Positions 14,532-50,108 of a stretch of DNA of 64,000 nucleotides are shown here, piece by piece (the stretch's first letter is position 1; the number at the start of each line of letters is the position of its first letter). This stretch comes from a virus (lineage: Duplodnaviria > Caudoviricetes). The stretch spans positions 32,001-96,000 of IMG/VR virus record IMGVR_UViG_3300032225_001145; one strand, written 5' to 3'. The translations under genes and the position numbers were made by a program. Under the pieces are notes generated by a model, which worked only from the letters and a program-made list of their open reading frames with translations, made no database searches and was not told where the DNA came from.

Positions 14532-15527
14532 ATGGAAAAATTAATAGAAATAAAAAATTCAAATAATAGTATATATGTCTACTGGATTCTCACTGATTTT
14601 TGTAATCAGCATTGTACATATTGTCCGCCAAGTTTAAATAATGCAACTTACGCAAATAAACCAAATTTTATAACTGATGCTGATATCGATCGATTTATTG
14701 ACAAATTAATTGATACTAAGAAAAAAACACAAAAAAAACTGATTGTTGGTATAGCAGGTGGAGAACCCACCACTCATAATAAGTTTCCTGATATTATAAA
14801 AAGATTATGCGACTATGCTTCTATAGAAGTAGTAACTAATGGGACACGGAGCGTTAAGTGGTGGAGTGAATTGCCGGCATTGCCTGACTTAACTGTTTTG
14901 TCGTTACACCCAGAATATTATGATGCTAAAAAAATAAAAATTAATGAACTGTGTGATTTTTTAACAGAAAATAATAAAGTTATACAATTTAACTTAATGT
15001 GCCATCCAGCAATGTGGGACAAAACTATGACAATGTTTAACGATATAGCTGAAAAGTATAAACAATTTATAATTCCAAAAGTTATACAAAATATGGATAA
15101 TAGTGGCGTTATGAATAATCAAGAAAAAAAAATATATAATTATTCAGTAGAACAATTGAATTTTATCAAAAATCATCAATATAAAATACATACGACTGAT
15201 AAAACTAGAAAAGCTAGCATCAGCATATATGCCGACTCAACTTCTAAAAAATGTAATCCAAACGCATTGATGGCGGATGGGCAACATTATTTTAAGAATT
15301 GGAAATGTTCGGCAGGCAGCGAAGGAATATCTGTTTCGCCCGAAGGAAAAATTTTAGCCGGTATTTGTGGAGCTAAACAATTAGGAACTTTGCAGACTAC
15401 TTTTGAATTTCTCGATGACTATTTAAATTGCCCAAAAGTTAATTGTGCCTGCCCCGGAGACATTGTTCTTAATAAGTATGATCCAACACTGGTTAGACAA
15501 AATACTAGTGATTCTAAAATTGAATAG
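14532..15527 (+). CDS. Radical SAM protein with C-terminal SPASM/twitch-like Cys-rich domain
   Basis: CNQHCTYC, GGEPT, TNG; WKCSAG...C...CPKVNCACPGD. Confidence 0.85.
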   Translation: MEKLIEIKNSNNSIYVYWILTDFCNQHCTYCPPSLNNATYANKPNFITDADIDRFIDKLIDTKKKTQKKLIVGIAGGEPTTHNKFPDIIKRLCDYASIEVVTNGTRSVKWWSELPALPDLTVLSLHPEYYDAKKIKINELCDFLTENNKVIQFNLMCHPAMWDKTMTMFNDIAEKYKQFIIPKVIQNMDNSGVMNNQEKKIYNYSVEQLNFIKNHQYKIHTTDKTRKASISIYADSTSKKCNPNALMADGQHYFKNWKCSAGSEGISVSPEGKILAGICGAKQLGTLQTTFEFLDDYLNCPKVNCACPGDIVLNKYDPTLVRQNTSDSKIE

Positions 15528-15551
15528 TCAAGAACAGGATCTTTGTTAAAT

Positions 15552-16118
15552 TTAATTTATTATGTAATTTTTAAAGTTATCTACAACTTCTAACCAGGGC
15601 ATGTTTTTAATTTTAGGACGAAGACTAACAGCATATCGATTACCAAACCCACTTGCGCGATGCGGAACTGACGCATTTACAAGATATGCTCCAACCATCA
15701 TATCGTACACTTTAATAGGGGCAACATTTGTAGAACAACGAATCCTCTTATAACCAGATCTTAGATATTCAGGACTATCAGGTTCATCTAAAACAGGATC
15801 TAGCATTTCTTTAGTCCAGTATTCCATTCTAGCACTACCGTTGTGAATCCAGTTAATCCCCCAAACACACGGAGCAGTTGGTTCTTTAAGTTCCGTTGCT
15901 TCGTCGGAATGAATTAGGCCAATAAAATTAGGTTTATAGAAAAAGTTGAATCCTTCAAATTCTATATTATTAAAAATGAGCCATTCTGGTTTAACTAATT
16001 CTTTTGCTACCATCATTTTATGCGTAGGTTCTGTAAAATCAAACAAAGATTTTTTAGCAGAATCTAACAATATATCAGGTAGCAATGGAAAATTTAATTT
16101 ATAGACATATTCAAACAT
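15552..16118 (-). CDS. Putative Fe(II)/2OG-type oxygenase (double-stranded beta-helix)
   Basis: IHSD...INW...PHR...RYAVSLR (HxD...H...R). Confidence 0.6.
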   Translation of the reverse strand: MFEYVYKLNFPLLPDILLDSAKKSLFDFTEPTHKMMVAKELVKPEWLIFNNIEFEGFNFFYKPNFIGLIHSDEATELKEPTAPCVWGINWIHNGSARMEYWTKEMLDPVLDEPDSPEYLRSGYKRIRCSTNVAPIKVYDMMVGAYLVNASVPHRASGFGNRYAVSLRPKIKNMPWLEVVDNFKNYIIN

Positions 16119-16163
16119 AAGATATTTATGTAAAATCTTATACCAAATACTTACATGAGTGTG

Positions 16164-16745
16164 TTAGTATAATTGTGTAATAGTATCAATTAATAATGAA
16201 TAATTAGACGGTACGGGTGTCTTTTTTGAAGGCGATTTGAATTCAGAAAAATCTTCATAGTATAATTCTACATCAGCTGAAATTTTAGACAAAATATTTT
16301 CTTCTATTTTAACTCGATTCATAGCATATCTAATTTTTCCAAGATCGATTTCAATATTAGTATTTACTAGATCAGCTTCGGTATAGTATTCCCATTTTTG
16401 CCTATAGTATCCAACATAGTAGCTAGCCATTTGTTCTATAGTATTTCTGCGAGACATTTTAATTCTAAAAACCTGATCTGAAAACATCGTAGCAATAATC
16501 TCCGACGGATAAGTTTTAATACTAGATCCTAGTAATTTTAAAATATAATCATTCTTTTTTTCAACCATAGTATGATTTAGAAATTTTTTCATATAATCGG
16601 AATCAGGAAAATTGCTTGGCTCATTATAGTAATCAAGCCCAGGATAAAGTTTTCCTAAATGATAACCTAAAGCAGTACTACCAGTTCTTGGACTAGCAAT
16701 TATTACTATAGGTTTTTTTGTTATATTATTTAAACCAGAAACCAT
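16164..16745 (-). CDS. Sulfotransferase-like protein
   Basis: IASPRTGST PAPS-binding loop, NEP, R-x-N..Q..S, YYED. Confidence 0.7.
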   Translation of the reverse strand: MVSGLNNITKKPIVIIASPRTGSTALGYHLGKLYPGLDYYNEPSNFPDSDYMKKFLNHTMVEKKNDYILKLLGSSIKTYPSEIIATMFSDQVFRIKMSRRNTIEQMASYYVGYYRQKWEYYTEADLVNTNIEIDLGKIRYAMNRVKIEENILSKISADVELYYEDFSEFKSPSKKTPVPSNYSLLIDTITQLY

Positions 16746-17664
16746 ATTTGTTTACCAATTTCATATAAAATTCAGCAGCATTGTGCAATTGTGTTCGAAC
16801 TATTATTCTTTCAAACCAATCCATTGATTTATCAACCCCAAAATACTCATAAAATTTTATCATTAATAAATTATATTTTTTAATTTCAGCTATGTCAGCT
16901 TTTTTATATTCTTCTTTATGTACTACCAGATGCTGTGGTAATCTTGGTTTAGAATAATTTATTTTTTTGTTGTTGGACCATTCTTTTGGATAGCCAACAC
17001 AAATTCCAAATATTGGTAATACTTTTTTTGGCAATTTAAGTTCGTCAGTTAAATCTATTGTTTTAATTGATCCACAGTACATTGTACCTAATCCCATAGA
17101 CTCGGCCGATAAACAAAATGTTTGTGCGGATATGATAGCATCACAAATAGATCTTATTTCATAACTACCATAACAAAATGCCTCTTGAGATTTTATTGTT
17201 TTGTCTTCGGAGTATAATGTTTTTACTTCAGAATCATTTAATATTGTATTAACTCGACTTAAATCTACACACCAAACAACAAATAGGTCGCATTCCATTA
17301 CAGCATTATAATTACCACTATCACTTCCTGATGTTACATTTAGTTTACCGTCTTTTAATGTACTGACGGTTAATCCCATGTTAGATCGTTTACGCGGCGA
17401 ATTAAAAAATATTTTTTCTCGATTTTCTTTAGATTCTATAACAATAGCAGACCAGGTTTGAAACATAGAACTAGTCGGTGCCGATTGCGCAGCGGCAAAT
17501 AATTTTTCTACTAGTAAAGGATCTATTTTTTGATCAGTAAATCTTCTTACTGTTTTTCTTTTAATAATATTTTCTATAAATTCGTTAGCTGGAAAAGTGT
17601 TGTCTATACCCCCACCATATCTTTGTTGGAACCCAGATAATTCTTGATCGTATAAATTATTCAT
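16726..17664 (-). CDS. Nitroreductase family (NfsA-like flavoprotein)
   Basis: RKTVRRF, AAQSAPTS, AESMGLG, PIFGICVGYP, KPRLP. Confidence 0.9.
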   Translation of the reverse strand: MNNLYDQELSGFQQRYGGGIDNTFPANEFIENIIKRKTVRRFTDQKIDPLLVEKLFAAAQSAPTSSMFQTWSAIVIESKENREKIFFNSPRKRSNMGLTVSTLKDGKLNVTSGSDSGNYNAVMECDLFVVWCVDLSRVNTILNDSEVKTLYSEDKTIKSQEAFCYGSYEIRSICDAIISAQTFCLSAESMGLGTMYCGSIKTIDLTDELKLPKKVLPIFGICVGYPKEWSNNKKINYSKPRLPQHLVVHKEEYKKADIAEIKKYNLLMIKFYEYFGVDKSMDWFERIIVRTQLHNAAEFYMKLVNKYGFWFK

Positions 17665-17760: not shown

Positions 17761-18309
17761 TTAATTTATAAAGACAGCTAATCTTTTCTTGGCCTCATTC
17801 ATAGTAAGTCTGTTATGATTATTAGCGCAATTAATCACTAAACTAATACATATTCGTTCTTCGATTAAATTAATTATATTATGTGGCAATCCTACTTGAA
17901 CCAAACTAGGGCTACTGATATGTTCTTCGACCGTAAAATTAACCTCAGACAAATCATAAACATAGAGAGTAGTTCCTATCGGATTATAAATAACTTGTTT
18001 ATGAATATCTGGCTTGACAGTAAACCATTGCATTACACTATCTTTACCTCCAATCACCCAATTAATTTTTACATAATCACCGAGCCCAGCGTCGCTATGT
18101 ATTAGCGGTTTGCAGTTTGGTTTACGATAAAAAACTTCTGCAAATCCTATTGATATGTTATAAGACTTTAGAGATTCAACAAGTGTTGGATTAATATCGA
18201 TGTTGACATCAAGCGACAAATGCCCAGTTTTTTTTATAGCATTGATAGTTTTTGCTATGTTATTAAGTGGAAAAATAGATAAATTTAAAGGTTGGCAGTA
18301 TTCGTTCAT
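17761..18309 (-). CDS. Putative Fe(II)/2OG-type oxygenase
   Basis: IHSD...KINW...PHNI...RICISL. Confidence 0.6.
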   Translation of the reverse strand: MNEYCQPLNLSIFPLNNIAKTINAIKKTGHLSLDVNIDINPTLVESLKSYNISIGFAEVFYRKPNCKPLIHSDAGLGDYVKINWVIGGKDSVMQWFTVKPDIHKQVIYNPIGTTLYVYDLSEVNFTVEEHISSPSLVQVGLPHNIINLIEERICISLVINCANNHNRLTMNEAKKRLAVFIN

Positions 18310-18474
18310 ATAGATATATTTACTGATATGTTAATGCTGTAACCCAGGCAATATGATATATTAGAGAAACTTGTAAAGTTGAGCCGCTTGTTAAACCTTG
18401 AGCACTTGCGGCCACTTATGCCGCAGATAGGATAAAAAGTTTACAAGTAGTTAATAAGTCAGTGTAAATATTAG

Positions 18475-19020
18475 TTATTCTAAAATTGAATAATCACGAA
18501 CAGCATCTTTTTTAAATCTTATAGTAAGATAATATCGATTTTTATCACTAAGATTTATAGCCGAGTGAACTTGTACATTATTAAAAATGTAAATACCGCC
18601 TTCAACTAACTGAGCTACTATAGATTTTAAATCGTTATCTTCGCCGTTACGCCACATCGCGGCAACTTTATCATTTGTAATAATAGGAATTTGTATTTTT
18701 ATAATGTTGTCTTGCATTGATCCATAATTTACTGCATTATAATCTGCATGCTCAACCAAATAAGTATGAGGATACATACAAGCAAAATTAGTTTGTAGGT
18801 TACCCTCCGAATCAAAAAACTTTGCTAGCTCTTTGTAAACTTTGTTAATTATATTCTGGTGATTTACAGTGAGCTGGCGTCTGCTCTTACTAACTTTAAT
18901 AACATTAGCGTGAAAATCAGGAACAGCAAAATATTCTTGTTCGGGCGCTATTATTTTTAATTCTTCTAGTAACGACTGAGATAGACTGCCAATAAGTTTG
19001 TAACTATATGGATGTTGCAT
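18475..19020 (-). CDS. Aspartyl/asparaginyl beta-hydroxylase-like oxygenase
   Basis: EHAD...QIPIITN...VHSAIN...RYYL. Confidence 0.75.
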   Translation of the reverse strand: MQHPYSYKLIGSLSQSLLEELKIIAPEQEYFAVPDFHANVIKVSKSRRQLTVNHQNIINKVYKELAKFFDSEGNLQTNFACMYPHTYLVEHADYNAVNYGSMQDNIIKIQIPIITNDKVAAMWRNGEDNDLKSIVAQLVEGGIYIFNNVQVHSAINLSDKNRYYLTIRFKKDAVRDYSILE

Positions 19021-19022
19021 AA

Positions 19023-19865
19023 TTATATGAAATTAAAAGTTAATCTTTTAAGCAATCTAGAACCGTTAACAGTTTCCCGTTTATGGACATTGAACCAATT
19101 ATCGTAAACAACAATATCACCTAGTTGCCATACATGTTTATAAAGTGTGTTAGATTTACTTTCTAATAATGTATATGTATTGAGCATAAACGCATCTATT
19201 TCTTTAGCTGTTAAAGTTATATTATTTTTTAACACACTATTAATCCAAGCCTTATTATTTTTGCCAGGATGATCGTAACAGTTTAGGTTAGGACTAGATT
19301 TATTTGTTTTAGGATTAATTTTAAGAAATGGAAGTTTTTTTAATCTTGTTCCAGGAATATACATGTCTTGAAACATTATTTCGTAACTGTCAAAGTTATT
19401 TTTCTCGTCCTGCGTAAGTTGATCCCATGCTAGTTCAAGATTTAACCAAGTCGTATCACCAGATCCGTCCTCAGTATTTTTAACCATGTATAACGCTCTG
19501 CCAGGATAGCTTAGTTCATTGACATGTGGCATATCGGCGTGGTATGCCATGTAGTCATTTTTAAACATATTATTGTTGGACTGAAAATAACTTACAGGTT
19601 TTAATGTGTCTTGTTTAATAGTCGAATCATTACCTTGTGAAATAAAAGATTTTTTATAGTCATCACGAGACCATACAGTACCAAATTTTTGTCCTAACGA
19701 ATAAAATTCGTCATCGGTTAAATTAGGACCAAGACCCCTAATAACAATTAGGTTTCTATCAAGGAGTAGATCGGTTAATAATTTGTTATCAATAGACATA
19801 AACTCCTGAAAAGAGTCTACATGCGTTATACTAGCCCAAGATTCGAAAATATTTTCAGTTTTCAT
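19023..19865 (-). CDS. TauD/TfdA-family dioxygenase
   Basis: YHAD, GDTTW, HVWQLGDIVVYDNWFNVHKR, RLLKR; start placed at 19865. Confidence 0.85.
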   Translation of the reverse strand: MKTENIFESWASITHVDSFQEFMSIDNKLLTDLLLDRNLIVIRGLGPNLTDDEFYSLGQKFGTVWSRDDYKKSFISQGNDSTIKQDTLKPVSYFQSNNNMFKNDYMAYHADMPHVNELSYPGRALYMVKNTEDGSGDTTWLNLELAWDQLTQDEKNNFDSYEIMFQDMYIPGTRLKKLPFLKINPKTNKSSPNLNCYDHPGKNNKAWINSVLKNNITLTAKEIDAFMLNTYTLLESKSNTLYKHVWQLGDIVVYDNWFNVHKRETVNGSRLLKRLTFNFI

Positions 19866-19995
19866 GGTTATATTTACCAGCAAATATTTTACTCAAAAAA
19901 TTTGATTATAATAGAATAATACTATATAATAATTGTAAAAATATCTTATAAGACGTTAGACTTATAATTGTAACAATTTATTGAGAACTTCTATT

Positions 19996-20319
19996 ATGAA
20001 ACACTATGTAGTAAGATTAAATGTTCAACCATGTGAACAACAATTTATGTGGAGAATTTGGGAGGATGGAATTGAAATCAAAAATGCTAGTAGCGTTTTT
20101 ATTAATGTTCCTAGCTATACGGAAAAAACTTTAGAATCTGAACCAGATAGATTTGGAAGATTTGAAAGGAATAACATAGCTTGTGACGGACATGCTACCT
20201 GGGAAGATTCTATTTTAAAAATAAACGGGAGTGTGGAGAAACAGGTATACTCAGCAGATTTAAAATCTGCCGACGCAAGTCATGGCGGTTCGACCCCGCC
20301 CATTCCTACCAAAATGTAA
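19996..20319 (+). CDS. Hypothetical protein whose frame runs through tRNA-Leu
   Basis: MKHYVVRLN...NIACDGH; no stop until past the tRNA. Confidence 0.55.
   Translation: MKHYVVRLNVQPCEQQFMWRIWEDGIEIKNASSVFINVPSYTEKTLESEPDRFGRFERNNIACDGHATWEDSILKINGSVEKQVYSADLKSADASHGGSTPPIPTKM
20227..20311 (+). tRNA. tRNA-Leu(TAA)
   Basis: GCAGA-TT-TAA-AA-TCTGC, long variable arm, A73, CCA. Confidence 0.9.
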
Positions 20320-20328
20320 AGTTTTAAC

Positions 20329-20402
20329 GCGGGATTAGTTTAATGGTAAAACAGCAGATTTCCAATCTTCGGTCAAGAGTTCGATTCTCTTATCCCGCTC
20401 CA
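20329..20402 (+). tRNA. tRNA-Gly(TCC)
   Basis: GCGGGA acceptor, TT-TCC-AA loop, U73, CCA. Confidence 0.9.
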
Positions 20403-20423
20403 ATTTAAAAGTAAAGTTTCAAA

Positions 20424-20497
20424 GCGGGTATGGTGTAATGGTAACCCGAATCCTTGCCAAGGATTAGTTGAGAGTTCGATTCTCTCTACCCGCTCCA
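20424..20497 (+). tRNA. tRNA-Gly(GCC)
   Basis: AATCC-TT-GCC-AA-GGATT, U73, CCA. Confidence 0.92.
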
Positions 20498-20609
20498 TGT
20501 AATGCGGACCCGTCAAACATTCCGCATCCGCTGTCAACGAAAACGGGATGGGCTGTTGGCACGGGGTTTGATAGTTTTCCTGACAACCGAAAAACTATCA
20601 CCAGTCAAT

Positions 20610-20685
20610 GGTAACTGTAGTTCAATGGTAGAATCCAGGATTGTGATTCCTGTTGTTGTGGGTTCGAGTCCCATCAGTTACCCCA
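20610..20685 (+). tRNA. tRNA-His(GTG)
   Basis: G-1:C73, CAGGA-TT-GTG-AT-TCCTG, CCA. Confidence 0.95.
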
Positions 20686-21361: not shown

Positions 21362-21901
21362 ATGTTTAAAAAATTAAAAAATACCTTTACTTTTAATGAT
21401 TATCAAACCCTAGAAAATCAAGTACAGTATGGAAAAGTCAGAGAAGATGGGTTTTATGGAATTTCGTATGATGTCGTAACAATTGGATCGAATATTAAAT
21501 TGTTCGAAGTAATACCTGAACAATATCGGAATAAATTTGCATTATTATCTATGGAGATAAATTGTCATATCAGGCCACATACTGATAGCGGAATTTTAGC
21601 TACAATTAATTTTTATATAGAATCACAAAATGCTATTACAAAATTTTATTCAATTAAATCAAATAATCCTACGACTTCAAAAATTGAAAATCAAACTAAT
21701 GGATCACTTTTTGAGTTATCCGATTTAGATGAACAAGACAGTTTTGTAGCTAAAGACGGCGAAGCATTTATTTTAGATGTAACTAATCCACATGCAGTAG
21801 CTTGTACCAAATACGGTATTAGAAAAGCATTGGTATTACAAACCAAAGAATTTTCATACGATGAAGTTTGTAAAATGCTTGAAGAAACAAATAATCTATA
21901 A
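21362..21901 (+). CDS. Putative Fe(II)/2OG-type oxygenase
   Basis: PHTD...INFY...PHAV...RKALVL. Confidence 0.6.
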   Translation: MFKKLKNTFTFNDYQTLENQVQYGKVREDGFYGISYDVVTIGSNIKLFEVIPEQYRNKFALLSMEINCHIRPHTDSGILATINFYIESQNAITKFYSIKSNNPTTSKIENQTNGSLFELSDLDEQDSFVAKDGEAFILDVTNPHAVACTKYGIRKALVLQTKEFSYDEVCKMLEETNNL

Positions 21902-22544: not shown

Positions 22545-24041
22545 ATGTATGATTGCGTTTTACTGTGCGGTTCAAAAAATGAAATTGCTGGACGAAATAT
22601 TGCAGGATATCGTCTGAGGACGGCAGCCGAACGAGCAGGATACTCGTGTTTAGTATTAGATTGTGCTACCGCAATGACTGCCAAAGATTTAGAAGTTGTA
22701 TTGGATCACACAATATCTGATAAAACATTAATGTTAGGTATTAGTACAGTCTGGTTAGATTCTAACGGACCGTTTGGTGTTCCTGGTAGTACCGAATGGA
22801 TTAATGAAGATTTTTTCAATCGAATCAAAACTAAATTTCCAAAATTAACAATCGTCGCTGGCGGCAATGGGCTTCTTAAATTAAAAGGTTCTGTTGAAAT
22901 ATATAATGCAGCACAGTGGCATGTCACTGGATTTAGCGATGATAGTTTTCCAAAATTATTAATGATGTTAGACGGAAAGCCAAATCACAATTTAAAATAT
23001 TTTGTAGATTTCAAAGGTAAGAAAACTGTTGACAGTAACGCAACCTATAAAATAGAAAATCCAAATAATATCGAAACAATACTGGTTAAAGATGACGGAT
23101 TCCTTGCTCATCAACCAATTCCATTAGAAGTAAGTAGAGGTTGTATTTTTAGATGCGCTTTCTGCAATCATCCTTTTACCGGAGCTAAAGATGCCGATAG
23201 TTATATCCGGACTCCAGAGAGTATCGCATCAGAATTACGCCGTAACTACGAATTATTTGGCACGACTAGATATTCTTTAATGGACGATACATTTAACGAT
23301 AGTATAGAAAAATTAGATAGATTAGAAAAAGCAATTGAATTAGCTAAATTGCCGAACTTTGAATTCCAATGTTATTTAAAACCTGAATTACTAGTAACCA
23401 AACCTGGCATGATAGACCAATTAAAAAGATTGGGCTTAATGGGCGCATTTGCTGGAATAGAAAGTTTAAATAATCGAGCAAGAAAAGAAATGAATAAAGG
23501 CATGGATATAGATCGTGTTTTAGATGCTATGTCAACATTAAAAAGTAAAAATTCTAAAGCAAAAATTTATGCAGGAATGATCGTGGGATTACCAGGAGAC
23601 ACAGTAGAAGATGTAGGGAAATGGCAGGAGCTTTTTATAAAAAATCAAACTACATTATTCCAAGGATGGGAGTATAATTCTTTAGGAATTTATAGTCCAA
23701 CGGATCGAGACAAAAAAAATATGCTTTTAAGCCCTATGGAAAAAGATCCAGAAAAATATGGATACCAAATTGTTAATGTTAGTGATTCAGGTTACAATTT
23801 TTGGCGGAATGAACATATGGATACCGGCATAGCTTATTCCTTAGCCGCTCGGTTAAATGTAGAATCAAGATTTATAACAACAGCAGCTGGATGGAATGTA
23901 GCCTCGGCTTGGCATTTAAATGAAACCGAAGAAAATATAGCTACTAAAACTTTAAATAAATTAGAATTAGGTCGACGACTTTTGGAACAAGCTAAAAATA
24001 GAGCGTCATTAGTTGCCACTAAGATTATTTCATCTAGTTAA
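22545..24041 (+). CDS. Radical SAM protein of B12-dependent type
   Basis: EVSRGCIFRCAFC, DDTFND, GIESL, IVGLPGDT; N-terminal Rossmann-like region. Confidence 0.8.
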   Translation: MYDCVLLCGSKNEIAGRNIAGYRLRTAAERAGYSCLVLDCATAMTAKDLEVVLDHTISDKTLMLGISTVWLDSNGPFGVPGSTEWINEDFFNRIKTKFPKLTIVAGGNGLLKLKGSVEIYNAAQWHVTGFSDDSFPKLLMMLDGKPNHNLKYFVDFKGKKTVDSNATYKIENPNNIETILVKDDGFLAHQPIPLEVSRGCIFRCAFCNHPFTGAKDADSYIRTPESIASELRRNYELFGTTRYSLMDDTFNDSIEKLDRLEKAIELAKLPNFEFQCYLKPELLVTKPGMIDQLKRLGLMGAFAGIESLNNRARKEMNKGMDIDRVLDAMSTLKSKNSKAKIYAGMIVGLPGDTVEDVGKWQELFIKNQTTLFQGWEYNSLGIYSPTDRDKKNMLLSPMEKDPEKYGYQIVNVSDSGYNFWRNEHMDTGIAYSLAARLNVESRFITTAAGWNVASAWHLNETEENIATKTLNKLELGRRLLEQAKNRASLVATKIISSS

Positions 24042-25917: not shown

Positions 25918-25925
25918 ACACATAT

Positions 25926-40511: not shown

Positions 40512-41100
40512 CATCATCAAAATATATATCATTGTTTATAAGTCTAAGCGTTAATATTTTCCGACTATTATCTAGGCTTTTATTATAAAAAGTATGATAG
40601 ATATCTACATTTATAAGTACTGCTTCGTTAGGCTGTGCGACTAAAGTTTTTACTTGAGGATATTCTGCAGCGTTGCGCCAATCTCTTAAAATATTTCTTG
40701 TAGTAATACCAGTAATATGCTCAGTACTATTACTACTAACAGGCCAATCTTTAAACTGTTCATCATTGTACCAACCAGTTATACATTTATCATCTAATAT
40801 CTGTAAAGGAATGTTAATACTTACTCGGTTGTCGTAGCCATCTTTATGTATACCGGCTCCGCCGTCGGGCCATGTATTAAATATCCAAAATCTATTCAAT
40901 TTTAAAGGAGTAATATCTTTAAATGGCAATTTTTCATTAATTGATATTGCTGTGTCTCGAGAAAGATATTCGGTTTGATACCCGGCGGCTTTTACTATGT
41001 TCGCTAAAGGTTGCTTAGATACAAAGTCAATTATATCTGATAGTCCGTCCCATTTAAATCTTATATAATAAGGACTACAGTCTTCTATAATGGTATACAT
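40486..41100 (-). CDS. Putative Fe(II)/2OG-type oxygenase
   Basis: MYTIIEDCSPYYIRF; IHKD...YHTF...RKILTLR. Confidence 0.65.
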   Translation of the reverse strand: MYTIIEDCSPYYIRFKWDGLSDIIDFVSKQPLANIVKAAGYQTEYLSRDTAISINEKLPFKDITPLKLNRFWIFNTWPDGGAGIHKDGYDNRVSINIPLQILDDKCITGWYNDEQFKDWPVSSNSTEHITGITTRNILRDWRNAAEYPQVKTLVAQPNEAVLINVDIYHTFYNKSLDNSRKILTLRLINNDIYFDDVKKLIFDL

Positions 41101-41115: not shown

Positions 41116-41727
41116 TTATTCTAATATTGCGTCAAAAATACAAACTATTCTGTCAACTGCTGTTTCATTTGTTATACTGTGTGGCACATGGTTATTAATC
41201 CAGTATAATTTACCCAATTCCAACTCAATGACTTCTTCTCTTACTATGAGCGAAGAACTTTTATCACAACTTATTATATATTGAAAACGATCATGTATTT
41301 CATAATAATTTCCTGAATCAATATGAGATTTTACACTTCCGCCCGCAAACAATCTACTTATCATAATTCTACCTAATAATATATTAGAGACTCCTTTTTC
41401 TATTAATGACCTTGTAAACCAGTCTACTAGTTCTTGGAAGATGGGATGCAAGTCGTACTCAGACATATTTGTAGCTGGCAGGAAATCGTTCCATTCTTTG
41501 TCAGTAACCGGCTTCGGTAGACCAGCGTTTAAATCAATATATCTTAAAAAAATTGCTTCGGTATCGCGCAAATATTTGTTTGTACGTTGTCTGCCAGTTC
41601 TTAATTTCCACCATTTTTCATTTTCAGAATTGTTTAACACATCTGTTAATCTTTTAGCAAGGTCTTGATTCTCGTTAATAAACAGGTAATTACTTTCCAC
41701 TGGTGCTAATTTAAAAGGTGAAAACAT
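41116..41727 (-). CDS. Aspartyl/asparaginyl beta-hydroxylase-like oxygenase
   Basis: RIMISRL, SHIDSG, WINNHVPHSITN, DRIVCIFD. Confidence 0.8.
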   Translation of the reverse strand: MFSPFKLAPVESNYLFINENQDLAKRLTDVLNNSENEKWWKLRTGRQRTNKYLRDTEAIFLRYIDLNAGLPKPVTDKEWNDFLPATNMSEYDLHPIFQELVDWFTRSLIEKGVSNILLGRIMISRLFAGGSVKSHIDSGNYYEIHDRFQYIISCDKSSSLIVREEVIELELGKLYWINNHVPHSITNETAVDRIVCIFDAILE

Positions 41728-42975: not shown

Positions 42976-43917
42976 TTAGTGTCCTTGTAAATTTTTGATC
43001 ATTTGTTTATAAGATAATGTGAACTCTGCATCACTAAAAGGAAATTGCTCTATAAGTTTTGCTTTTACAGATCGTTCTACAAATGCTAAATTTTCAAAAC
43101 CTGTATATTTTTTCCTGTCAGCGATATCAGATTCAGGATAATGTTTTTGATACAATGCGTGTTTAATATCAGCATTAGACGATAATGGATTTTCATTTTC
43201 TAATTTAGAATTTACCAATTCAAGAATAATAGGATCAGTGAGATACGCTAACATTTGCTCAGGCGTATATTGATGAAATCCTGGTACTCCTTTAATGCCC
43301 GAAAACATCCAATACTTATACCAAGACACAATTACTTCTCTTTCTCTAAACCACCACTCCCCAAATTGACCGTAAATGAACGGTTCTCCTTGGCCTAATA
43401 CTACAAAGCCGTCTAGTTGTTTTGCTAACCACATTGTACATGCTAACATAGGGCTACGAGTTTGACTAAGTGTTACTATTTCTTGGAATTCCGTTGAATC
43501 CCAAAAATCAATAGGATTTAAGATATATTCTTTTTTAGGAATGTTGTATTTTTCACAAAACATGTCAGCATATCTACATTCTTCGTAATTTAATATTTTA
43601 TCACTATTTTTAATTTTATATTTTAATACTGCAGCCACAAAAGGAACGTTAGCTTCAAGAAAACTTCTAGCGGCAACTTCACTATCTGCTCCACCTGATA
43701 ATAAAAGATAAATTGTTTCATTTTTCGCAGACTCTTGAATTAGCAAAGCCGCCCTCTTATTTGCTTTGTTAATTGATAAATTTTCAGAAGCTATTCCGTA
43801 CTCACATTGCCATTTTTGATTATCTCCGGTTCGCGGAACATACCACTGCCCATCGTATCCAAATTTAAAATGATTCATAAATGTATAGGCAGGCGAGATA
43901 TCACAATAAGTATTCAT
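42976..43917 (-). CDS. PP-loop ATPase-like protein (paralog of 46596-47513)
   Basis: LLSGGADSE, GQGEP, YTPE, KYTGFE. Confidence 0.7.
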   Translation of the reverse strand: MNTYCDISPAYTFMNHFKFGYDGQWYVPRTGDNQKWQCEYGIASENLSINKANKRAALLIQESAKNETIYLLLSGGADSEVAARSFLEANVPFVAAVLKYKIKNSDKILNYEECRYADMFCEKYNIPKKEYILNPIDFWDSTEFQEIVTLSQTRSPMLACTMWLAKQLDGFVVLGQGEPFIYGQFGEWWFREREVIVSWYKYWMFSGIKGVPGFHQYTPEQMLAYLTDPIILELVNSKLENENPLSSNADIKHALYQKHYPESDIADRKKYTGFENLAFVERSVKAKLIEQFPFSDAEFTLSYKQMIKNLQGH

Positions 43918-44875: not shown

Positions 44876-45181
44876 ATGCCCGTGACCTTAACAAGTGCCT
44901 CTACTAAGCCAAGCAATGTAAAATGGTTTCCGTATAGTTCTGATGATAATCAGTTACTAATTAATAATCTAAACAAATGGACTAAAGCACAACCTGGTTT
45001 TATTAGCCAAACATCAGAAAATCTTTCAGCCGATGCCAGCAATACAACATATATTTGGGATAGCATAGAAAATTATGCAGCGTGGTATACAGCTCGTGAA
45101 AAGCGTCCAGAACAGATAGCTAGAGCAGCATACAATAGTACAAACAACATCATTTCTACATTAAATGAAACGATTAGCTAA
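44876..45181 (+). CDS. Small hypothetical protein (possible dimeric alpha/beta barrel)
   Basis: AGGAG RBS; PGFIS...YIWDSIENY pattern. Confidence 0.6.
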   Translation: MPVTLTSASTKPSNVKWFPYSSDDNQLLINNLNKWTKAQPGFISQTSENLSADASNTTYIWDSIENYAAWYTAREKRPEQIARAAYNSTNNIISTLNETIS

Positions 45182-45751
45182 TTTAAAATTTTTCATATTA
45201 TTGTGCCAAACTATTTGTCCATTATCTGTTAGATAATGTAACATAACCCATTGTTTCATACTTTCTGGATCTTCTACATAGCAAGGTCCATTTAACGCAT
45301 ATTTTGTAGGTTCTAAGATAAATTCAGCATTACAATTAATTTTGATTAGTTTTGAATATTCTTCAAATCCCTTTAAGTTAAATGCCCTACTAATGAAGAC
45401 ACAATCTAATCCAATCAATTTTGCTTTTGCTAATTGTATAGGCAAGCAATAAGTTGTGTTAAGAAATTTAGCACCGCCAGTAAATTTTCCAGTATGCCTA
45501 TAGTCTGGGTGGATCCACATTCTTGTACTGACTCTACCAATTCCGTTACCCCACCAATTTGTATTGACTTGTAAGGCGCTAAAGCATATAATTATATTAT
45601 TGACTATCACTACAGGAAACGAGACAAAATTTCGTGGATCTATATCAATGTAATTATATTTTAAATCATCGGTTGTTGTTAACAAATATTGTTGAAATTG
45701 GTTCCATAATACCTCATCAAACAAGGTAGAAAAGTCAATAATTTTTATCAT
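45161..45751 (-). CDS. GNAT-like hypothetical protein
   Basis: RVSTRMWIHPDYR; LDCVFISR; start placed at 45751. Confidence 0.5.
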   Translation of the reverse strand: MIKIIDFSTLFDEVLWNQFQQYLLTTTDDLKYNYIDIDPRNFVSFPVVIVNNIIICFSALQVNTNWWGNGIGRVSTRMWIHPDYRHTGKFTGGAKFLNTTYCLPIQLAKAKLIGLDCVFISRAFNLKGFEEYSKLIKINCNAEFILEPTKYALNGPCYVEDPESMKQWVMLHYLTDNGQIVWHNNMKNFKLANRFI

Positions 45752-45777
45752 CGTGAAATATTTACTTAAATACATCC

Positions 45778-46599
45778 ATGCCTAAAACTAATTCCTTCCT
45801 TAACTATATCCTTTATCCTACCCATGCTATTGCTTGGTTAGGTACAATCCTTTATTTGATATTTTTTGATTTTACTTGGGTTAATTTTTTACAAGTATTA
45901 ATTGGATGGATTATAATCGAAGGATTGGGCGTTGCAGTTATACTACACAGATATGTAAGCCATAGAGCCGTTGAATTACGCCCAGGATTAAAACCAATTT
46001 TACTTTGGATCAGCTGTTTGAGTTTACAAGGTAGTCCATTGGGTTGGGCCGCTGTACATCGCGGTAGTCATCATAGATATTCTGATACTGAAAAAGATGC
46101 TCATGCTCCTAGTAGAGGCAAATGGTATGCGTGGCATAGTTGGTTACACGATTGGGACGAATATTTTAATCCTAAGTATGCTATTGATCTTGTAAAGGAT
46201 CCTATGCACATGTGGTTTGCTAAAAATTATAATTGGATTATATTAGTTACTTACATCATAGTTGGGTTGATATCATGGCAGTTGTTATTATTTGGATTTA
46301 TTGTTCCTGCCGCAATAAGTTTGTATATGGAAAGTAATATCAATGTATTTTGCCATACACCAGGATACGGTTATAGAAACTTTGACACTAAAGACGATAG
46401 TCAAAATGTTCCGTTACTTGGGTGGATTACTTGGGGCCAAGGTTGGCATAATAATCATCATGCTAAAGCAAGTTCATACGATTTTGGAACATCGGTAAGC
46501 GGCAATAAAAAAGAATGGGATTTTAGCCTTATCTTTTTACCATTGATTGCTACTAAAGAAAGCAGAAAACAAATATTCGACGGACGCAAAGTTCAATGA
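45778..46599 (+). CDS. Membrane fatty-acid (acyl-CoA delta-9-like) desaturase
   Basis: Three His boxes HRYVSH, HRGSHH, HNNHH; YRNFDTKDDS; TM segments. Confidence 0.92.
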   Translation: MPKTNSFLNYILYPTHAIAWLGTILYLIFFDFTWVNFLQVLIGWIIIEGLGVAVILHRYVSHRAVELRPGLKPILLWISCLSLQGSPLGWAAVHRGSHHRYSDTEKDAHAPSRGKWYAWHSWLHDWDEYFNPKYAIDLVKDPMHMWFAKNYNWIILVTYIIVGLISWQLLLFGFIVPAAISLYMESNINVFCHTPGYGYRNFDTKDDSQNVPLLGWITWGQGWHNNHHAKASSYDFGTSVSGNKKEWDFSLIFLPLIATKESRKQIFDGRKVQ

Positions 46600-47513
46600 A
46601 TTTTACCTATCAAAATCATCTGAAATATTCTATAGATGGCAGAGAGTATGGTTATCGAGAAACTGAGATTGATAAATTTGAAGTTAGGCTAGGCGCGGTA
46701 GACCCTGATCAATATAGAACTAGTTCTTTTGAAAACGAACTTCATAGAACCGCCCAACTCATACAAGAAGATTTTGGCAAAGATTTGATTTTATTTTTAT
46801 CTGGTGGAACCGATAGCGAAATAGTATTGCGGAATTTTATTCATAATGGGTTTAAGCCTAGGTGTGCTATGATAGCATTTAAAAATGGACATAACGAAGG
46901 CGAAGTATACGAAGCTAAAGCAATAGCACACGAATTAGATGTAAAATTAGATATAATAGAGTTTGATGTTGAAGATTTTTTCTTTTCGGGAGAAGCTACA
47001 GAGTTCGGAGAAAAAATACAAAGTACACAAATAACTTATATCATGGTGTACAATCAGATTTTAAAATTAGGTGCTCCGGCAGTCATGGGAGGTGAGGCAG
47101 GACTTACCCGTTCTGTGAGTAAAGACGGTAGTTTTTGGTATTATGCGTTTAGAGAAAACGAAGATGCTAGCGCAATGCGCTTTAGTTTAAAATATAATAT
47201 TCCATTAGTTAATGAATATTTTAGTTATACTCCCGAGTTACTACTATATTACTTAGAATCAGACGGTGTAAAAAGTTTAGTTACAGAAAAATACAATTAT
47301 AAATTAACTGCAGCTTCATCTAAAAATAAAATTTTAGCAACATTATATCCTAACTTTAGAAGAAAACCAAAAAGACATGGTTTTGAAAGTCTTATTGCAT
47401 TTAATGGACAAGCCTACGACCATATTGGGTTTAATCAGATTAAACGATTAGAACCTAGCCTAGACGGTATACCATATGAACAAGCTGTGAAACAACTAAG
47501 AGGCGAAGAATGA
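46596..47513 (+). CDS. PP-loop ATPase-like protein
   Basis: FLSGGTDSE, MGGE, YTPE, KRHGFE. Confidence 0.7.
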   Translation: MNFTYQNHLKYSIDGREYGYRETEIDKFEVRLGAVDPDQYRTSSFENELHRTAQLIQEDFGKDLILFLSGGTDSEIVLRNFIHNGFKPRCAMIAFKNGHNEGEVYEAKAIAHELDVKLDIIEFDVEDFFFSGEATEFGEKIQSTQITYIMVYNQILKLGAPAVMGGEAGLTRSVSKDGSFWYYAFRENEDASAMRFSLKYNIPLVNEYFSYTPELLLYYLESDGVKSLVTEKYNYKLTAASSKNKILATLYPNFRRKPKRHGFESLIAFNGQAYDHIGFNQIKRLEPSLDGIPYEQAVKQLRGEE

Positions 47514-48109
47514 AAATTATAGAACTAAATCAATCCCACATGGGAAAAACTCAACATTTGTTTAAATCTAAAAATTTTATGGGTACAGATGTACAAACAA
47601 GTTATTTCGTTCCCACTGAACATAATCCCATGGGTGCCATTTACTATAGCGCCTTCCAACGTACTTACCTTACTGGGTTAGCAAGTTACAAGGCTCTTGG
47701 ATTAGAAGATGACGAAGGCAATATTGTAGGTTACATATCTTTTTATTTAAGTCCAAATGAACCAGTTTGGTATGGCACTATGATTCGTTCAGCTCGGAAT
47801 AAAGAATATGTACGACAATTATTAGATGCTGCTATGGAATACAATGAAAAATTAGGGCGTTATAAATTTTATACATTATGGTCCGCAAAACATGCTAAAT
47901 TATTAAGACGATTTGCTTTTAGTAGCGAAGCTACACAACGCTATGATCATTTTGACGAATGCTTAATTCCTGCTAAAACTAAATGTATCTATCAAAATTA
48001 TTGGACTATATTATTCAGTCGCATTTTATTACCAACAGATACTATTGTAAGGTGTACCTATCTAAAACGCGAATATAGGAAAGATATTCCTATTGGCGGT
48101 TTTTTATAA
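47510..48109 (+). CDS. GNAT-like hypothetical protein
   Basis: IVGYISFY...WY...RQLLDAAMEY pattern. Confidence 0.45.
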   Translation: MKIIELNQSHMGKTQHLFKSKNFMGTDVQTSYFVPTEHNPMGAIYYSAFQRTYLTGLASYKALGLEDDEGNIVGYISFYLSPNEPVWYGTMIRSARNKEYVRQLLDAAMEYNEKLGRYKFYTLWSAKHAKLLRRFAFSSEATQRYDHFDECLIPAKTKCIYQNYWTILFSRILLPTDTIVRCTYLKREYRKDIPIGGFL

Positions 48110-49159
48110 TTGATTGAACAACAATATTTGATTTAGTTCTTCTTTTGTATATTCTGATCTTAAGTTTCCAGATTCTGCGCCTAACCCTCTTATTGGCACC
48201 ATCTCAACGGACAATAAATGTCTTGGAAGATTATACTGTTTCATAACTTGGTTGATTTCGTCAGCTAGTTCAATTGCTTGATCGATGATTCCAGGTTTGG
48301 CCATGAGCTTAACAATAAACTGTGTTAAATTTTTTGTACCTAGAGATAACTTATTAGCAATAGCAGATACATTTTTTATGAATAATTCTTTTTTCATAAA
48401 CTCAAAATGTGCGCTGAATATTAATATATTATAATTGTCACAATTTTTCTCCCAGTACTTAGAGCCCTGACTTCCGTTTGACACTAACATAGTCCATTGA
48501 TTTTTACTACTGAGATATTGTATAAAAGGTTCAAAGTCAGGATTTAGTGTTGGTTCACCCCCGCCAAAGTACCAACGGATAGGATTACCATCACTCCAAT
48601 TATCGATAGCATAATTGGCTGTTTTAATTAATGTGTCCAAACTTTTATGTGGATCTGTTGTGTTATGTACATCGGGCCAGCAATAACTACAATTATAATT
48701 ACACTGGCGGCCTATATCCCATAGTATTTGTTTAGGTACTTTATGAGTAAACTTTACAGCATCGATGCTGTTAATATCGATAAACTTCTGATCAAGATCT
48801 GTAGTATGTTCATTTATAAAATCAATAGCAGATGAATTTTTATATTTTGTTACTACTATATCAGAACCGCAACCACAAGATTCGTAAGGACATATAACAG
48901 TTTCTTTAGGTATGGTAAAATTTTGATTAATATTACCTAAATGTCCCCATGCTGGTTTATTATTTTTTAAAAGCCACTTGCCTACACCGCCAGAGCAATT
49001 ACCATTCCACACATTACCGTCAAAATCTATGTATAAACTTTGGATTCCAGTACTGCATGCCCATCCTTGAAATTTATTTAATTTAGCAGTAACAATATCT
49101 TCTATACTTGCCAGCACTTTACGATTGTCGTCAGTAAGTATGACTAATTGTTTAGCCAT
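48104..49159 (-). CDS. Radical SAM protein with N-terminal (permuted) SPASM/twitch-like domain
   Basis: WACSTG...C...CPYESCGCGSD precedes CNYNCSYC, GGEPT, SNG. Confidence 0.8.
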   Translation of the reverse strand: MAKQLVILTDDNRKVLASIEDIVTAKLNKFQGWACSTGIQSLYIDFDGNVWNGNCSGGVGKWLLKNNKPAWGHLGNINQNFTIPKETVICPYESCGCGSDIVVTKYKNSSAIDFINEHTTDLDQKFIDINSIDAVKFTHKVPKQILWDIGRQCNYNCSYCWPDVHNTTDPHKSLDTLIKTANYAIDNWSDGNPIRWYFGGGEPTLNPDFEPFIQYLSSKNQWTMLVSNGSQGSKYWEKNCDNYNILIFSAHFEFMKKELFIKNVSAIANKLSLGTKNLTQFIVKLMAKPGIIDQAIELADEINQVMKQYNLPRHLLSVEMVPIRGLGAESGNLRSEYTKEELNQILLFNQL

Positions 49160-50108
49160 CCTTATATTCCTTAGTACTCATAATATCAAAGTTACAGTGG
49201 CACATTTTTTTAGTACAGCGTATTGGGTCAGTTGGCAAAGTTAAATTAGTATCGAAGATATTGCCAATGGACCCGCCTTCGAGGCACCAACCACGAGAAA
49301 TTTTACCGCGCTGATCTACAATTAATTGTTCAACTCCGGCGTAACAGTCCCAGCCCGACCAATCATTTGCTTTTTCGTTAATAAATCTATGGGCACTTAC
49401 TACCAACGATTCGCCGCTGGGGTACAACATTTTCATTGCTCCCCTATAGTAATCAAATGATTTAGTAAATTTAATATGCTTACTAATCAACTCATGCTGG
49501 TCGTCTATGACTTTCTTTTGTTCGGGAGTATAGTCATATAGCACTTCGCCAAAGTCATGAATAAGCGGCTGTAATGCCATAGAAATATTGCCTAACTCCT
49601 TAATCTTGTTAGCAATCTCAAAACAAAAATCAAATTTTGTAGGATCCATCATGATATTAACATGTGTCCTTACATCATTGTTTAATGCTTTAACAACTTC
49701 AACGAAATGATCAGCATCTGCAAATTCAGGATGAAAACTCAAACACACATGATCAAAATATTGTTTATGTTCATTCCAATATCTTAAAGTCCTAGATCCG
49801 TTGGATATAAGTCCTACCTTCACACCTTGCTCTGTACAGTACCGACATATATCTATAAAGTGTTTATATAAAGTTACTTCACCACCAGTAAATTCAAAAT
49901 AAAGTTTTTTATTAGGATGAGTGGCTTTTACTGTTTGTATAAAATTTTTAATTGTATCTGGAGTTGGCCAAGGATTAGTTCCGTTGTGTAAATTTTCTGG
50001 GCAATAACTACAACTAAAATTACATGTATTGCCTAAACACCAATTAACTACAAACCATTCTGTGTTAAAAGGGTTAGCATGTTCTAATTTATAATATTTT
50101 TTTTGCAT
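49152..50108 (-). CDS. Radical SAM protein with C-terminal SPASM/twitch-like domain
   Basis: CNFSCSYC, TGGEVT, SNG; WDCYAG...WC...CTKKMCHCNFD. Confidence 0.85.
   Translation of the reverse strand: MQKKYYKLEHANPFNTEWFVVNWCLGNTCNFSCSYCPENLHNGTNPWPTPDTIKNFIQTVKATHPNKKLYFEFTGGEVTLYKHFIDICRYCTEQGVKVGLISNGSRTLRYWNEHKQYFDHVCLSFHPEFADADHFVEVVKALNNDVRTHVNIMMDPTKFDFCFEIANKIKELGNISMALQPLIHDFGEVLYDYTPEQKKVIDDQHELISKHIKFTKSFDYYRGAMKMLYPSGESLVVSAHRFINEKANDWSGWDCYAGVEQLIVDQRGKISRGWCLEGGSIGNIFDTNLTLPTDPIRCTKKMCHCNFDIMSTKEYKDG

Follow-up and report, generated by a model that had tools for sequence, protein, structure and literature searches.

What does a phage gain from a stretch of genome crowded with tailoring enzymes, and on what would those enzymes act? 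The question is raised by positions 14532–50108 of a 64,000-nucleotide stretch of viral DNA (here called the window), where putative oxygenases, PP-loop ATPases, radical S-adenosylmethionine (SAM) enzymes, acyltransferases and a sulfotransferase are encoded. The original prediction, made from the sequence alone, had described these genes as one diversifying modification system with no visible substrate, most plausibly directed at virion proteins or glycans. Comparison with related records shows instead that the stretch is a hyperplastic accessory zone, a mosaic of two layers of genes and not one pathway. The parts of the prediction that stand are the enzyme assignments, for the most part, and diversification: each related record holds a different subset of oxygenase subfamilies, and oxygenase orthologs are 34–47% identical.

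The window (G+C content ∼36%) comprises bases 32001–96000 of the 124,971-bp IMG/VR record IMGVR_UViG_3300032225_001145, for which CheckV completeness is 36%. Given that homologs of window genes are found on metagenome contigs of up to 333–379 kb, the DNA is that of a giant phage of roughly 350 kb; the source is an uncultured phage of about 350–380 kb. At the DNA level, the whole stretch had no match among GenBank phages by megablast. A tblastn search of 50,697 GenBank phage records with two of the oxygenases likewise gave no match, and nothing was found for the largest oxygenase subfamily in 185,579 prokaryote genomes. The open reading frames (ORFs) listed with the original prediction are all present in the window. 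Genes are referred to below by their left-hand window coordinates, and features are collected in Table 1.

Conserved and Variable Layers of the Enzyme-rich Stretch

The relatives compared included G1 (a 133-kb record, syntenic and inverted), G5, L003/L004, L005 and L006; one related record is a 24.7-kb fragment. Genes shared with G1 show a median identity of 78%, whereas the oxygenase orthologs are 34–47% identical. Conserved in G1 are the genes for a MoxR protein (96%), a DUF2201 protein (85%), the QueC-like enzyme (79%), a metallophosphatase (78%), a sugar epimerase (76%) and 45161 (75%), together with the desaturase (82%), the ligase 46596 (79%), the GNAT-like protein 47510 (73%) and the radical SAM protein 49152 (86%). 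Absent from G1 are 14532, 16726, 18475, 21362, 22545, 24080 and 25390, as well as 27028, 28077, 32052, 42976, 43964 and 48104; other genes, three paralogs of 41718 among them, stand at those places in G1.

The conserved layer thus comprises the QueC-like enzyme, the desaturase-ligase-GNAT operon, the epimerase with its DxD protein, and the radical SAM protein of the tail operon. The variable layer is made up of units of one to six genes, richer in AT and quick to diverge, and these units are not the same from one related phage to the next. Small oxygenases are its main part, and it also includes two PP-loop subfamilies and the twitch-type radical SAM paralogs. The G+C content is 31.8% for the oxygenase genes, 31.5% for other variable genes and 37.1% for the rest (oxygenase genes against all other genes, Mann-Whitney p=1.4e-5). 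Once the variable layer is set apart, the QueC-like enzyme, the desaturase-ligase-GNAT operon and the tail-operon radical SAM protein are modules open to study on their own.

Copy number across related phages, suggested earlier as a check, proved informative in that several oxygenase copies were observed in each record. Profile matches numbered 7 in G1, 9 in the 24.7-kb fragment (8 of them within 10 kb), and 4, 4 and 3 in other related records, counts that include a few weak or fragmentary matches. A maximum-likelihood tree resolved at least 11 deep oxygenase subfamilies; orthologs occur in more than one genome, and every genome has a subset of its own. The locus shows rapid turnover of the family inside one phage lineage of 350–380 kb. 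Three linkages recur: an oxygenase gene beside a sulfotransferase-like gene, often with a nitroreductase (G1, G5); a GNAT gene beside a PP-loop gene (26533/27028 and 46596/47510; also in G1 and L006); and the desaturase, ligase and GNAT genes with the divergent 45161 (G1, L006). The orthologs of 15552 in G1 and G5 adjoin such a sulfotransferase-like gene.

Many of the enzymes had been described as single genes inserted against the main transcription direction. Four singles of this kind are present, and the other counter-direction genes form two pairs and a block of six. All oxygenase genes but 21362 (10 of 11) lie on the minus strand, as does the tail operon that starts at 50117. A pair of 57-nt direct repeats brackets a 2,966-bp cassette of four genes and looks like the recombination scar of a gene insertion. 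The repeated segment arose by duplication of the 3′ end of an 18475-like oxygenase gene, and one copy overlaps the stop region of 14532.

A Large Family of Small Fe(II)/2-Oxoglutarate Oxygenases

The original prediction had counted 11 oxygenases carrying an HxD...H motif, one of them TauD-like, and the count is upheld. The window holds 11 putative 2-oxoglutarate (2OG) oxygenases, all of the Fe(II)/2OG-oxygenase type: nine members of one small family of ∼180–210 residues, together with 41116 and the TauD-family protein 19023, both of which fall outside it. The small family is mostly missed by Pfam and PHROGs. Given that neither Pfam nor PHROGs gave any match for 8 of the 11 proteins, even at E≤10, their oxygenase status was tested by other means; in all, Pfam supported three of the proteins and the hidden Markov model (HMM) described below supported nine. 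The PF05118 cut-off (22.6 bits) was passed only by 18475 and 41116, the other eight small candidates giving either no match or one of 12 bits.

A MAFFT alignment of ten small candidates showed a single H-x-D motif and a single distal His, followed 8–10 residues later by Arg, and the H-x-D..H triad was present in all 10 aligned window proteins. Searched against 1.84 billion metagenome proteins, the profile of this alignment matched (E≤1e-3) the representatives of 2,991 clusters formed at 50% identity. Of these, 404 matched at E≤1e-10, nearly all of them 170–215 residues in length. Across 150 aligned members, H79, D81 and H154 were invariant, and N96 and R164 were conserved in ≥90%. By analogy with prolyl 4-hydroxylase (P4H) and prolyl hydroxylase domain (PHD) enzymes, we infer that R164, at position H+10, binds the C5 carboxylate of 2OG. 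Pfam matches among the 150 members were to Asp_Arg_Hydrox (11), 2OG-FeII_Oxy_5 (3), JmjC (1) and Cupin_2 (1).

An external-only HMM was built from 140 metagenome sequences with the window proteins excluded. It matched 15552, 17761, 18475, 21362, 24080, 25390, 25926, 29996 and 40486 with E values from 4e-78 to 2e-11; there was no further match in the whole 125-kb record, and 41116 gave none. When a protein's own close relatives were removed from the profile, eight of the nine still matched at E≤7e-9; 25926 was joined to the family through intermediates only. The family was found solely in phage-like metagenome sequence. The locus defines a large oxygenase family (∼3,000 clusters at 50% identity) that is mostly unrecognized by Pfam and PHROGs. 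Three metagenome proteins, P0013 (556 residues), P0043 and P0119 (383 residues), carry two or three small-oxygenase domains in tandem on one polypeptide.

A profile of the 150 family members had no match among PDB sequences at E≤1, and the oxygenase fold therefore had to be shown by structure. Here, 25390 was the sole oxygenase modeled. The AlphaFold2 (AF2) model (pLDDT 92.6, pTM 0.88) has the double-stranded β-helix (DSBH) fold and gave 81 PDB matches at E≤1e-3, almost all of them 2OG oxygenases or other cupin-fold dioxygenases, with free-amino-acid hydroxylases as the top Foldseek matches. Structural alignments (VIA-align) gave Z scores of 10.6–11.9 over 126–173 residues, including 11.9 to 6n1f (root mean square deviation 3.3, 149 residues aligned), 11.6 to the PBCV-1 prolyl hydroxylase 5c5t and 11.1 to AlkB. 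In a viral structure library, the nearest models were those of unnamed proteins from uncultured Caudovirales; 2OG oxygenases of cyanophages and giant viruses came next. Structure prediction, another check proposed at the outset, thus supported the assigned folds both here and for the PP-loop/synthetase-like protein 46596 described below.

PP-loop Proteins and a Probable QueC Route

Five proteins had been reported to carry the SGGxDS loop of PP-loop ATPases, and the motif is indeed present in all five (24771, 27028, 41718, 42976 and 46596). The PP-loop fold was shown, by modeling, for 46596; 42976 is its paralog, and 27028 and 41718 are assigned by motif only. In hhalign comparisons, the latter two aligned to the 46596 ligase family at the PP-loop region only. 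Pfam PP-loop matches of 42976 and 46596 were weak. For 41718, which has three paralogs in G1, 41772 is the likelier true start.

The statement that no substrate is visible was wrong for 24771. In addition to its Pfam match, the spacing of its tail Cys residues is that of the QueC zinc site. It falls below the NCBIfam equivalog TIGR00364 (22.3 bits against 150.3) and is therefore named QueC-like, with an inferred function. Given that genes for GTP cyclohydrolase I (FolE) and a 6-pyruvoyltetrahydropterin synthase (PTPS)/QueD homolog lie just left of the window and QueE is encoded at 5650, this enzyme has an obvious substrate, 7-carboxy-7-deazaguanine. It is a probable 7-cyano-7-deazaguanine synthase that would complete the path from FolE through QueD and QueE to 7-deazaguanine. 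Left of the window, a 142-residue HhH-GPD (OGG-like) protein is encoded between the GTP cyclohydrolase I and QueD genes (L022:11850-12278); a 558-residue protein upstream of that region had no Pfam match at 1e-3.

The Desaturase-Ligase-GNAT Operon

The absence of a visible substrate was also claimed wrongly for 45778, a Δ9-type membrane desaturase. The nitroreductase and desaturase assignments are both borne out by Pfam, the latter by PF00487 (2e-16, 60.8 bits against a cut-off of 29.7), and 45778 carries three His boxes (HRYVSH, HRGSHH and HNNHH) plus hydrophobic transmembrane segments. To judge from these features, it would clearly act on lipids. The genes 45778, 46596 and 47510 form a translationally coupled operon, and G1 and the more distant L006 both retain the module. 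Coupling of the desaturase to a ligase and a GNAT-like gene suggests a pathway and not a lone metabolic gene.

Homologs of 46596 numbered 756 at 60–93% identity, on contigs of up to 379 kb, and the gene is therefore conserved within the lineage. The 46596 model (pLDDT 91.8) gave Z scores of 15.7, 14.8 and 14.8 to asparagine synthetases and β-lactam synthetase. Over ∼250 aligned residues, scores to asparagine, β-lactam and carbapenam synthetase domains ranged from 13.0 to 15.7, and those to LarE, NadE, TilS and QueC were ≤10.7. The 305-residue protein has no N-terminal nucleophile (Ntn) glutaminase domain and no N-terminal Cys nucleophile, the synthetase domain alone aligning, and it had no match to Pfam Asn_synthase. 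On the model, 46596 is an AsnB-like PP-loop ligase without a glutaminase domain, with a predicted function. Among prokaryote genomes, the sole match of the ligase family was a 4-kb contig from a Ca. Saccharibacteria bin (CAITDW010000132.1), on which the C terminus of a 46596-like ligase (76% identity) is encoded. This contig was rejected as a host clue, being probably a misbinned phage fragment.

Three GNAT-like proteins had been proposed. One, 26533, is supported by PF00583, and 47510 falls just below the Pfam cut-off (19.3 against 20.7 bits); the third, perhaps 45161, was without support. No PDB sequence relatives were found for 45161 or 47510.

Radical SAM Proteins, a Sulfotransferase Candidate and Other Enzymes

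Four radical SAM proteins besides QueE were expected and found, 14532, 22545, 48104 and 49152 each combining PF04055 with a CxxxCxxC motif. Three of them (14532, 48104 and 49152) are paralogs; 14532 is 55% identical to its counterpart in L003/L004. Cys-rich extensions of the SPASM/twitch kind are present, and the NCBIfam matches of the radical SAM proteins were all far below cut-offs. A Cys-rich auxiliary domain (C..C..CxxxxCxC) stands at the C terminus of 14532 and 49152 and at the N terminus of 48104 (48104–49159), an arrangement that, at the level of sequence, appears as domain permutation within one radical SAM paralog family. The B12-binding protein 22545 matches the PhpK and lipid-ladder B12 radical SAM families, all below cut-off.

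The proposed sulfotransferase, 16164, had no Pfam or PHROG match and rests on motifs for 3′-phosphoadenosine-5′-phosphosulfate (PAPS) binding plus a weak Stf0 profile match. The sequences PRTGST and RRN..Q..S, corresponding to the 5′-phosphosulfate-binding (5′-PSB) and 3′-phosphate-binding (3′-PB) loops, are invariant in 20 homologs, and the protein aligns weakly to both PAPS loops of Stf0 (1tex; E 0.089). The neighboring nitroreductase 16726 is 55% identical in G5. Two methyltransferases had been claimed; the FkbM-family protein 32052 is one, and the second was not identified, unless the B12 radical SAM protein 22545 was meant. The DxD protein 39300, which has a DGD motif, is a paralog of 50685 in the tail operon, and both it and the epimerase 38372 are conserved in relatives. 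For 29996, the likely true start is at ∼30595.

Table 1. Features of the enzyme-rich stretch in window coordinates (HMM, E value with the external-only small-oxygenase model)
Feature	Coordinates	Strand	Evidence or remark
Radical SAM protein with C-terminal Cys-rich (twitch/SPASM-like) extension	14532..15527	+	PF04055 4e-12; CNQHCTYC at residue 24
57-nt direct repeat	15500..15556 and 18466..18522		86% identity
Putative small Fe(II)/2OG dioxygenase	15552..16118	-	HMM 2.6e-12; HSD at residue 70; TAAATA upstream
Stf0-like sulfotransferase candidate	16164..16745	-	PAPS-loop motifs
Nitroreductase-family flavoenzyme	16726..17664	-	PF00881 2e-19; NfsA-like 2e-38, below cut-off
Putative small Fe(II)/2OG dioxygenase	17761..18309	-	HMM 1.8e-27; ortholog clade with G1, G5, L005
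Putative small dioxygenase, also Asp/Arg β-hydroxylase match	18475..19020	-	PF05118 26.7 bits; HMM 1.6e-11
TauD/TfdA-family Fe(II)/2OG dioxygenase	19023..19883	-	PF02668 8e-17, 62.4 bits against cut-off 27
Four tRNA genes	20227..20685	+	ARAGORN
Putative small Fe(II)/2OG dioxygenase, sole plus-strand oxygenase gene	21362..21901	+	HMM 2.2e-34
B12-binding (class B, methylase-type) radical SAM protein	22545..24041	+	PF04055 1.6e-19; 60% identical in L003/L004
Putative small Fe(II)/2OG dioxygenase, single inserted gene	24080..24649	-	HMM 2.4e-12; TAAATA upstream
QueC-like PP-loop enzyme	24771..25397	+	SGGLDS at residue 30; C-x9-C-x2-C-x2-C tail; PF06508 33.5 bits against cut-off 22
Putative small Fe(II)/2OG dioxygenase, modeled member	25390..25923	-	AF2 model
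Putative small Fe(II)/2OG dioxygenase	25926..26507	-	HMM 2.2e-13; orthologs in G1, G5
GNAT acetyltransferase, PP-loop gene 27028 directly after	26533..27027	+	PF00583 3e-09
PP-loop-motif protein	27028..28080	+	SGGVDS at residue 95; no family match
Putative small Fe(II)/2OG dioxygenase, 40486 paralog, single inserted gene	29996..30625	-	HMM 3.9e-78; BLAST
FkbM-family methyltransferase	32052..32804	+	PF05050 7e-15
NAD-dependent sugar epimerase/dehydratase (38372), then DxD protein 39300	38372..40511	+	PF01370 9e-41
Putative small Fe(II)/2OG dioxygenase	40486..41100	-	HMM 6.3e-61
Asp/Arg β-hydroxylase-family dioxygenase, not small family	41116..41727	-	PF05118 28.2 bits
PP-loop protein subfamily A, ∼400 residues	41772..42962	+	SGGADS; phage-only (Uroviricota) clusters without Pfam family
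PP-loop protein subfamily B, single inserted gene	42976..43917	-	SGGADS; 46596 paralog (BLAST), 28% identical
Conserved module: divergent 45161 plus coupled desaturase 45778, ligase 46596, GNAT-like 47510	45161..48109	mixed	see genes in text
Two radical SAM paralogs, 3′ end of tail operon	48104..50108	-	PF04055; Cys maps

A Promoter-like Motif Shared with Virion Genes

Of the 145 genes in the whole record, 34 have the hexamer TAAATA in the 40 nt before them, against an expectation of ∼2.8. The hexamer mostly begins 10–14 nt before the ATG, and the genes concerned have no clear Shine-Dalgarno sequence. We take the motif to be akin to a T4-type late promoter (TATAAATA); if it is a −10 element of that type, its distance from the ATG implies near-leaderless mRNAs. 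TAAATA precedes virion genes (e.g. 55029), the desaturase gene 45778 and 7 of the 11 oxygenase genes, a count that includes a copy overlapping the start codon of 25390. In G1 and G5, it stands before the first gene of most oxygenase units.

Possible Substrates of the Variable Enzymes

The virion protein or glycan target that had been proposed is in keeping with the TAAATA motif in common with virion genes and with the DxD and fiber-like neighbors of the stretch, and no target was identified. Given this motif and the orientation shared with the tail operon, the variable enzymes are interpreted, tentatively, as being expressed late and acting singly to tailor virion proteins or glycans. This putative role is placed ahead of three alternatives: a collection of unrelated accessory genes, modification of nucleic acids, and synthesis of a ribosomally synthesized and post-translationally modified peptide (RiPP) or a small molecule. 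Most units have a TAAATA promoter-like motif to themselves and would be transcribed late, together with the virion genes. Substrates for hydroxylation by the oxygenases would be the side chains of phage surface proteins (such as fibers and a 5,277-residue protein encoded at the right of the window) or the glycans of those proteins. The same targets would then be sulfated by the sulfotransferase, glycosylated by the DxD proteins, amidated or acylated by the AsnB-like ligases and their GNAT partners, and cross-linked by the radical SAM proteins. Related phages would as an outcome display different surface chemistries and, if virion proteins or glycans are truly the targets, would possess an enzyme-based route to vary their surface.

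Several observations weigh against virion tailoring. No collagen-like G-x-y runs were found, nor were DNA tandem repeats, CHxS and HxS repeats, RGRR tails or Cys-rich tails; a six-frame regular-expression search of the whole 125-kb record likewise gave no Cys-His-x-Ser-tailed protein. Each oxygenase consists of the catalytic domain alone, and no module for docking a substrate is visible. The oxygenase fold scores are tied among free-amino-acid hydroxylases, protein hydroxylases and AlkB, and the fold is therefore silent on the substrate. The best structural match of 16164 is a sugar sulfotransferase, and is weak. At least two enzymes, QueC (deazaguanine synthesis) and the desaturase (lipids), clearly serve other processes. 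In the left half of the island the neighbors are tRNA genes, and ∼30 kb separate this half from the tail operon. Moreover, TAAATA also precedes non-structural genes, such that "late" is an assumption.

A more ambitious form of the virion-tailoring interpretation, which we regard as improbable, is that the small dioxygenases, the two phage-only PP-loop ligase subfamilies and the twitch-type radical SAM proteins constitute a combinatorial system of virion-surface diversification, each phage drawing a subset from a shared pool. Post-translational change of fiber or coat residues would then alter adsorption or allow escape from host recognition, and the system, if real, would do by chemistry what diversification at the sequence level does for receptor-binding proteins.

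Among the alternatives, the one that survives best, although we hold it to be somewhat unlikely, is that these are unrelated auxiliary or host-takeover genes, each with its own host target, and that the island is a site of accessory-gene accumulation. Lipid desaturation, amino-acid hydroxylation, 2OG drawdown and redox chemistry are possible roles. Mosaic structure and differing conservation of the genes are as expected from such accumulation, as are the tRNA genes interspersed in the island and the free-amino-acid hydroxylases at the top of the Foldseek matches. The His boxes of the desaturase are of the lipid type, and phage lipid desaturases are known (PMC5776448). Multi-copy 2OG oxygenases in hot-spots of cyanomyovirus genomes close to tRNA genes have been read as metabolic or repair genes (PMC3037559). 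Functional linkage is nevertheless suggested by the presence of 9–11 paralogs of one fold and by the recurring GNAT/PP-loop pairing and oxygenase-sulfotransferase-nitroreductase grouping; the motif and orientation in common with virion genes also argue against independent roles. If host metabolites are the targets, the genes represent a large unexplored set of viral metabolic genes.

Modification of nucleic acids, in the form of an elaborated 7-deazaguanine in phage DNA or of phage tRNAs, is considered unlikely. The QueC-like enzyme with FolE, QueD and QueE nearby points in this direction, as do PP-loop and radical SAM folds typical of tRNA modification, the tie between AlkB and protein hydroxylases in the oxygenase comparisons, and the tRNA genes. 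Those in the island number eight (the four in Table 1 and others starting at 24673, 29245, 29648 and 29734, by ARAGORN), and the whole window has 14 tRNAs plus a tmRNA. By contrast, the four PP-loop proteins other than 24771 matched no tRNA or queuosine family above NCBIfam cut-offs, and 46596 is nearest to asparagine and β-lactam synthetases, not to MnmA, TilS or QueC. Pfam scans detected no THUMP, PUA or other RNA-binding domain, and the variable presence of the oxygenases fits an essential DNA modification poorly.

An AsnB/β-lactam-synthetase-like ligase, 2OG oxygenases and a GNAT together make up the kit for clavams, carbapenems and tabtoxin, and AsnB homologs also serve as lasso-peptide cyclases. 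Synthesis of a RiPP-like or small-molecule natural product is nonetheless very improbable here: the glutaminase-free 46596 (Z 13–14.8 to β-lactam and carbapenam synthetases), the TauD/clavaminate-type oxygenase, the radical SAM proteins with twitch/SPASM-like domains and the nitroreductase-family enzyme would suit it, but asparagine synthetases score equally or higher, the genes are dispersed and individually variable and not one cluster, and Pfam and NCBIfam scans and motif searches, which short precursors could escape, revealed no precursor peptide, RiPP recognition element (RRE)/PqqD, YcaO, lasso protease, crotonase or carboxyethylarginine synthase (CEAS)-like gene.

Relation to Known Dioxygenase Arrays

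Divergent 2OG dioxygenase arrays in large aquatic phages have been known since 2005–2010, and to our knowledge no substrate has ever been shown. Ten tandem dioxygenases of at least five families were described in phage Syn9 by Iyer, Abhiman, de Souza and Aravind in 2010, who predicted that dioxygenase-sulfotransferase-acetyltransferase neighborhoods modify tail-collar or collagen-like proteins (PMC2938197). Of the 16 cyanomyoviruses in Sullivan et al. (2010), 14 have 2OG-Fe(II) oxygenase genes, between one and five each, and the same authors described variable hot-spots near tRNA genes (PMC3037559). Given these precedents, this kind of locus is already known. What is new here is the sequence family, the phage lineage, the dispersed promoter-tagged units, and the PP-loop and radical SAM expansions. 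No publication was found on the expression timing of phage oxygenase arrays.

The likeness to Syn9 lies in a large tailed phage with about ten small, divergent Fe(II)/2OG dioxygenase genes near fiber genes, in the links to sulfotransferase and acetyltransferase genes, and in the several diverse dioxygenases per phage (11 in the window, 3–9 in related records). The Syn9 genes, however, form one tandem array (gp45–gp54) that comes after a fiber gene, whereas those described here are dispersed over 26 kb in short units opposite the backbone strand and are accompanied by expanded PP-loop and radical SAM paralogs. Among the ORFs scanned here, there was no Pfam match to a tryptophan halogenase or JmjC, and gp52 alone of the Syn9 proteins matches the small-family profile, weakly (E 5e-5, 12.9 bits). 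T4-like cyanomyoviruses resemble the present phage in having one to five or more oxygenases of ∼190–240 residues per genome in variable hot-spots with tRNA genes; they differ in phage lineage and sequence family, and the copy number is higher here.

At the level of individual enzymes, the small oxygenases share with P4H/PHD enzymes and Asp/Asn β-hydroxylases (5c5t; PF05118) the DSBH, the H-x-D..H motif and a basic residue ∼10 positions after the distal His, and PF05118 is the Pfam family most often matched (11 of 150 members). The proteins described here are much shorter, with no peptide-binding or accessory domain; most fall below Pfam thresholds, and no collagen-like or EGF-like substrate is encoded nearby. 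The ligase 46596 resembles AsnB, β-lactam and carbapenam synthetases in its aligned core and SGGxDS loop and differs from them in its short length, in the missing Ntn glutaminase and in its coupling to the desaturase and GNAT-like genes. Phage lipid desaturases are known from cyanophages (Roitman et al., PMC5776448). Like these, 45778 is a phage-encoded membrane desaturase with three His boxes; the translational coupling to a ligase and a GNAT-like gene sets it apart.

Neighboring Genes and Other Features

The tail operon (50117–55014) encodes three DxD proteins, 50685, 52186 and 52901, which are glycosyltransferase-like by motif and have no family match; 52186 and 52901 are a paralog pair. 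The first protein, 50117, has a methyltransferase-like motif and likewise no family match. The DxD proteins adjoin 54067, a fiber-like protein rich in Ser, Thr, Asn and Gly. PHROGs returned nothing for the tail-operon neighbors or for 39300, 43964, 45161 and 28077. A single ORF of 5,277 residues occupies window positions 57156–63998 and extends beyond (genome 89156–104989). Its product is 69% identical to a 5,004-residue protein of G1 and is presumably a giant virion or fiber protein.

Scans for sigma-70 promoters and terminators gave results at chance level. A perfect sigma-70 consensus (TTGACA-17-TATAAT) is located at 30810–30838, before the plus-strand MoxR-type AAA ATPase gene 30893, which is paired at a distance with the DUF2201 VWA/metallopeptidase gene 35255.

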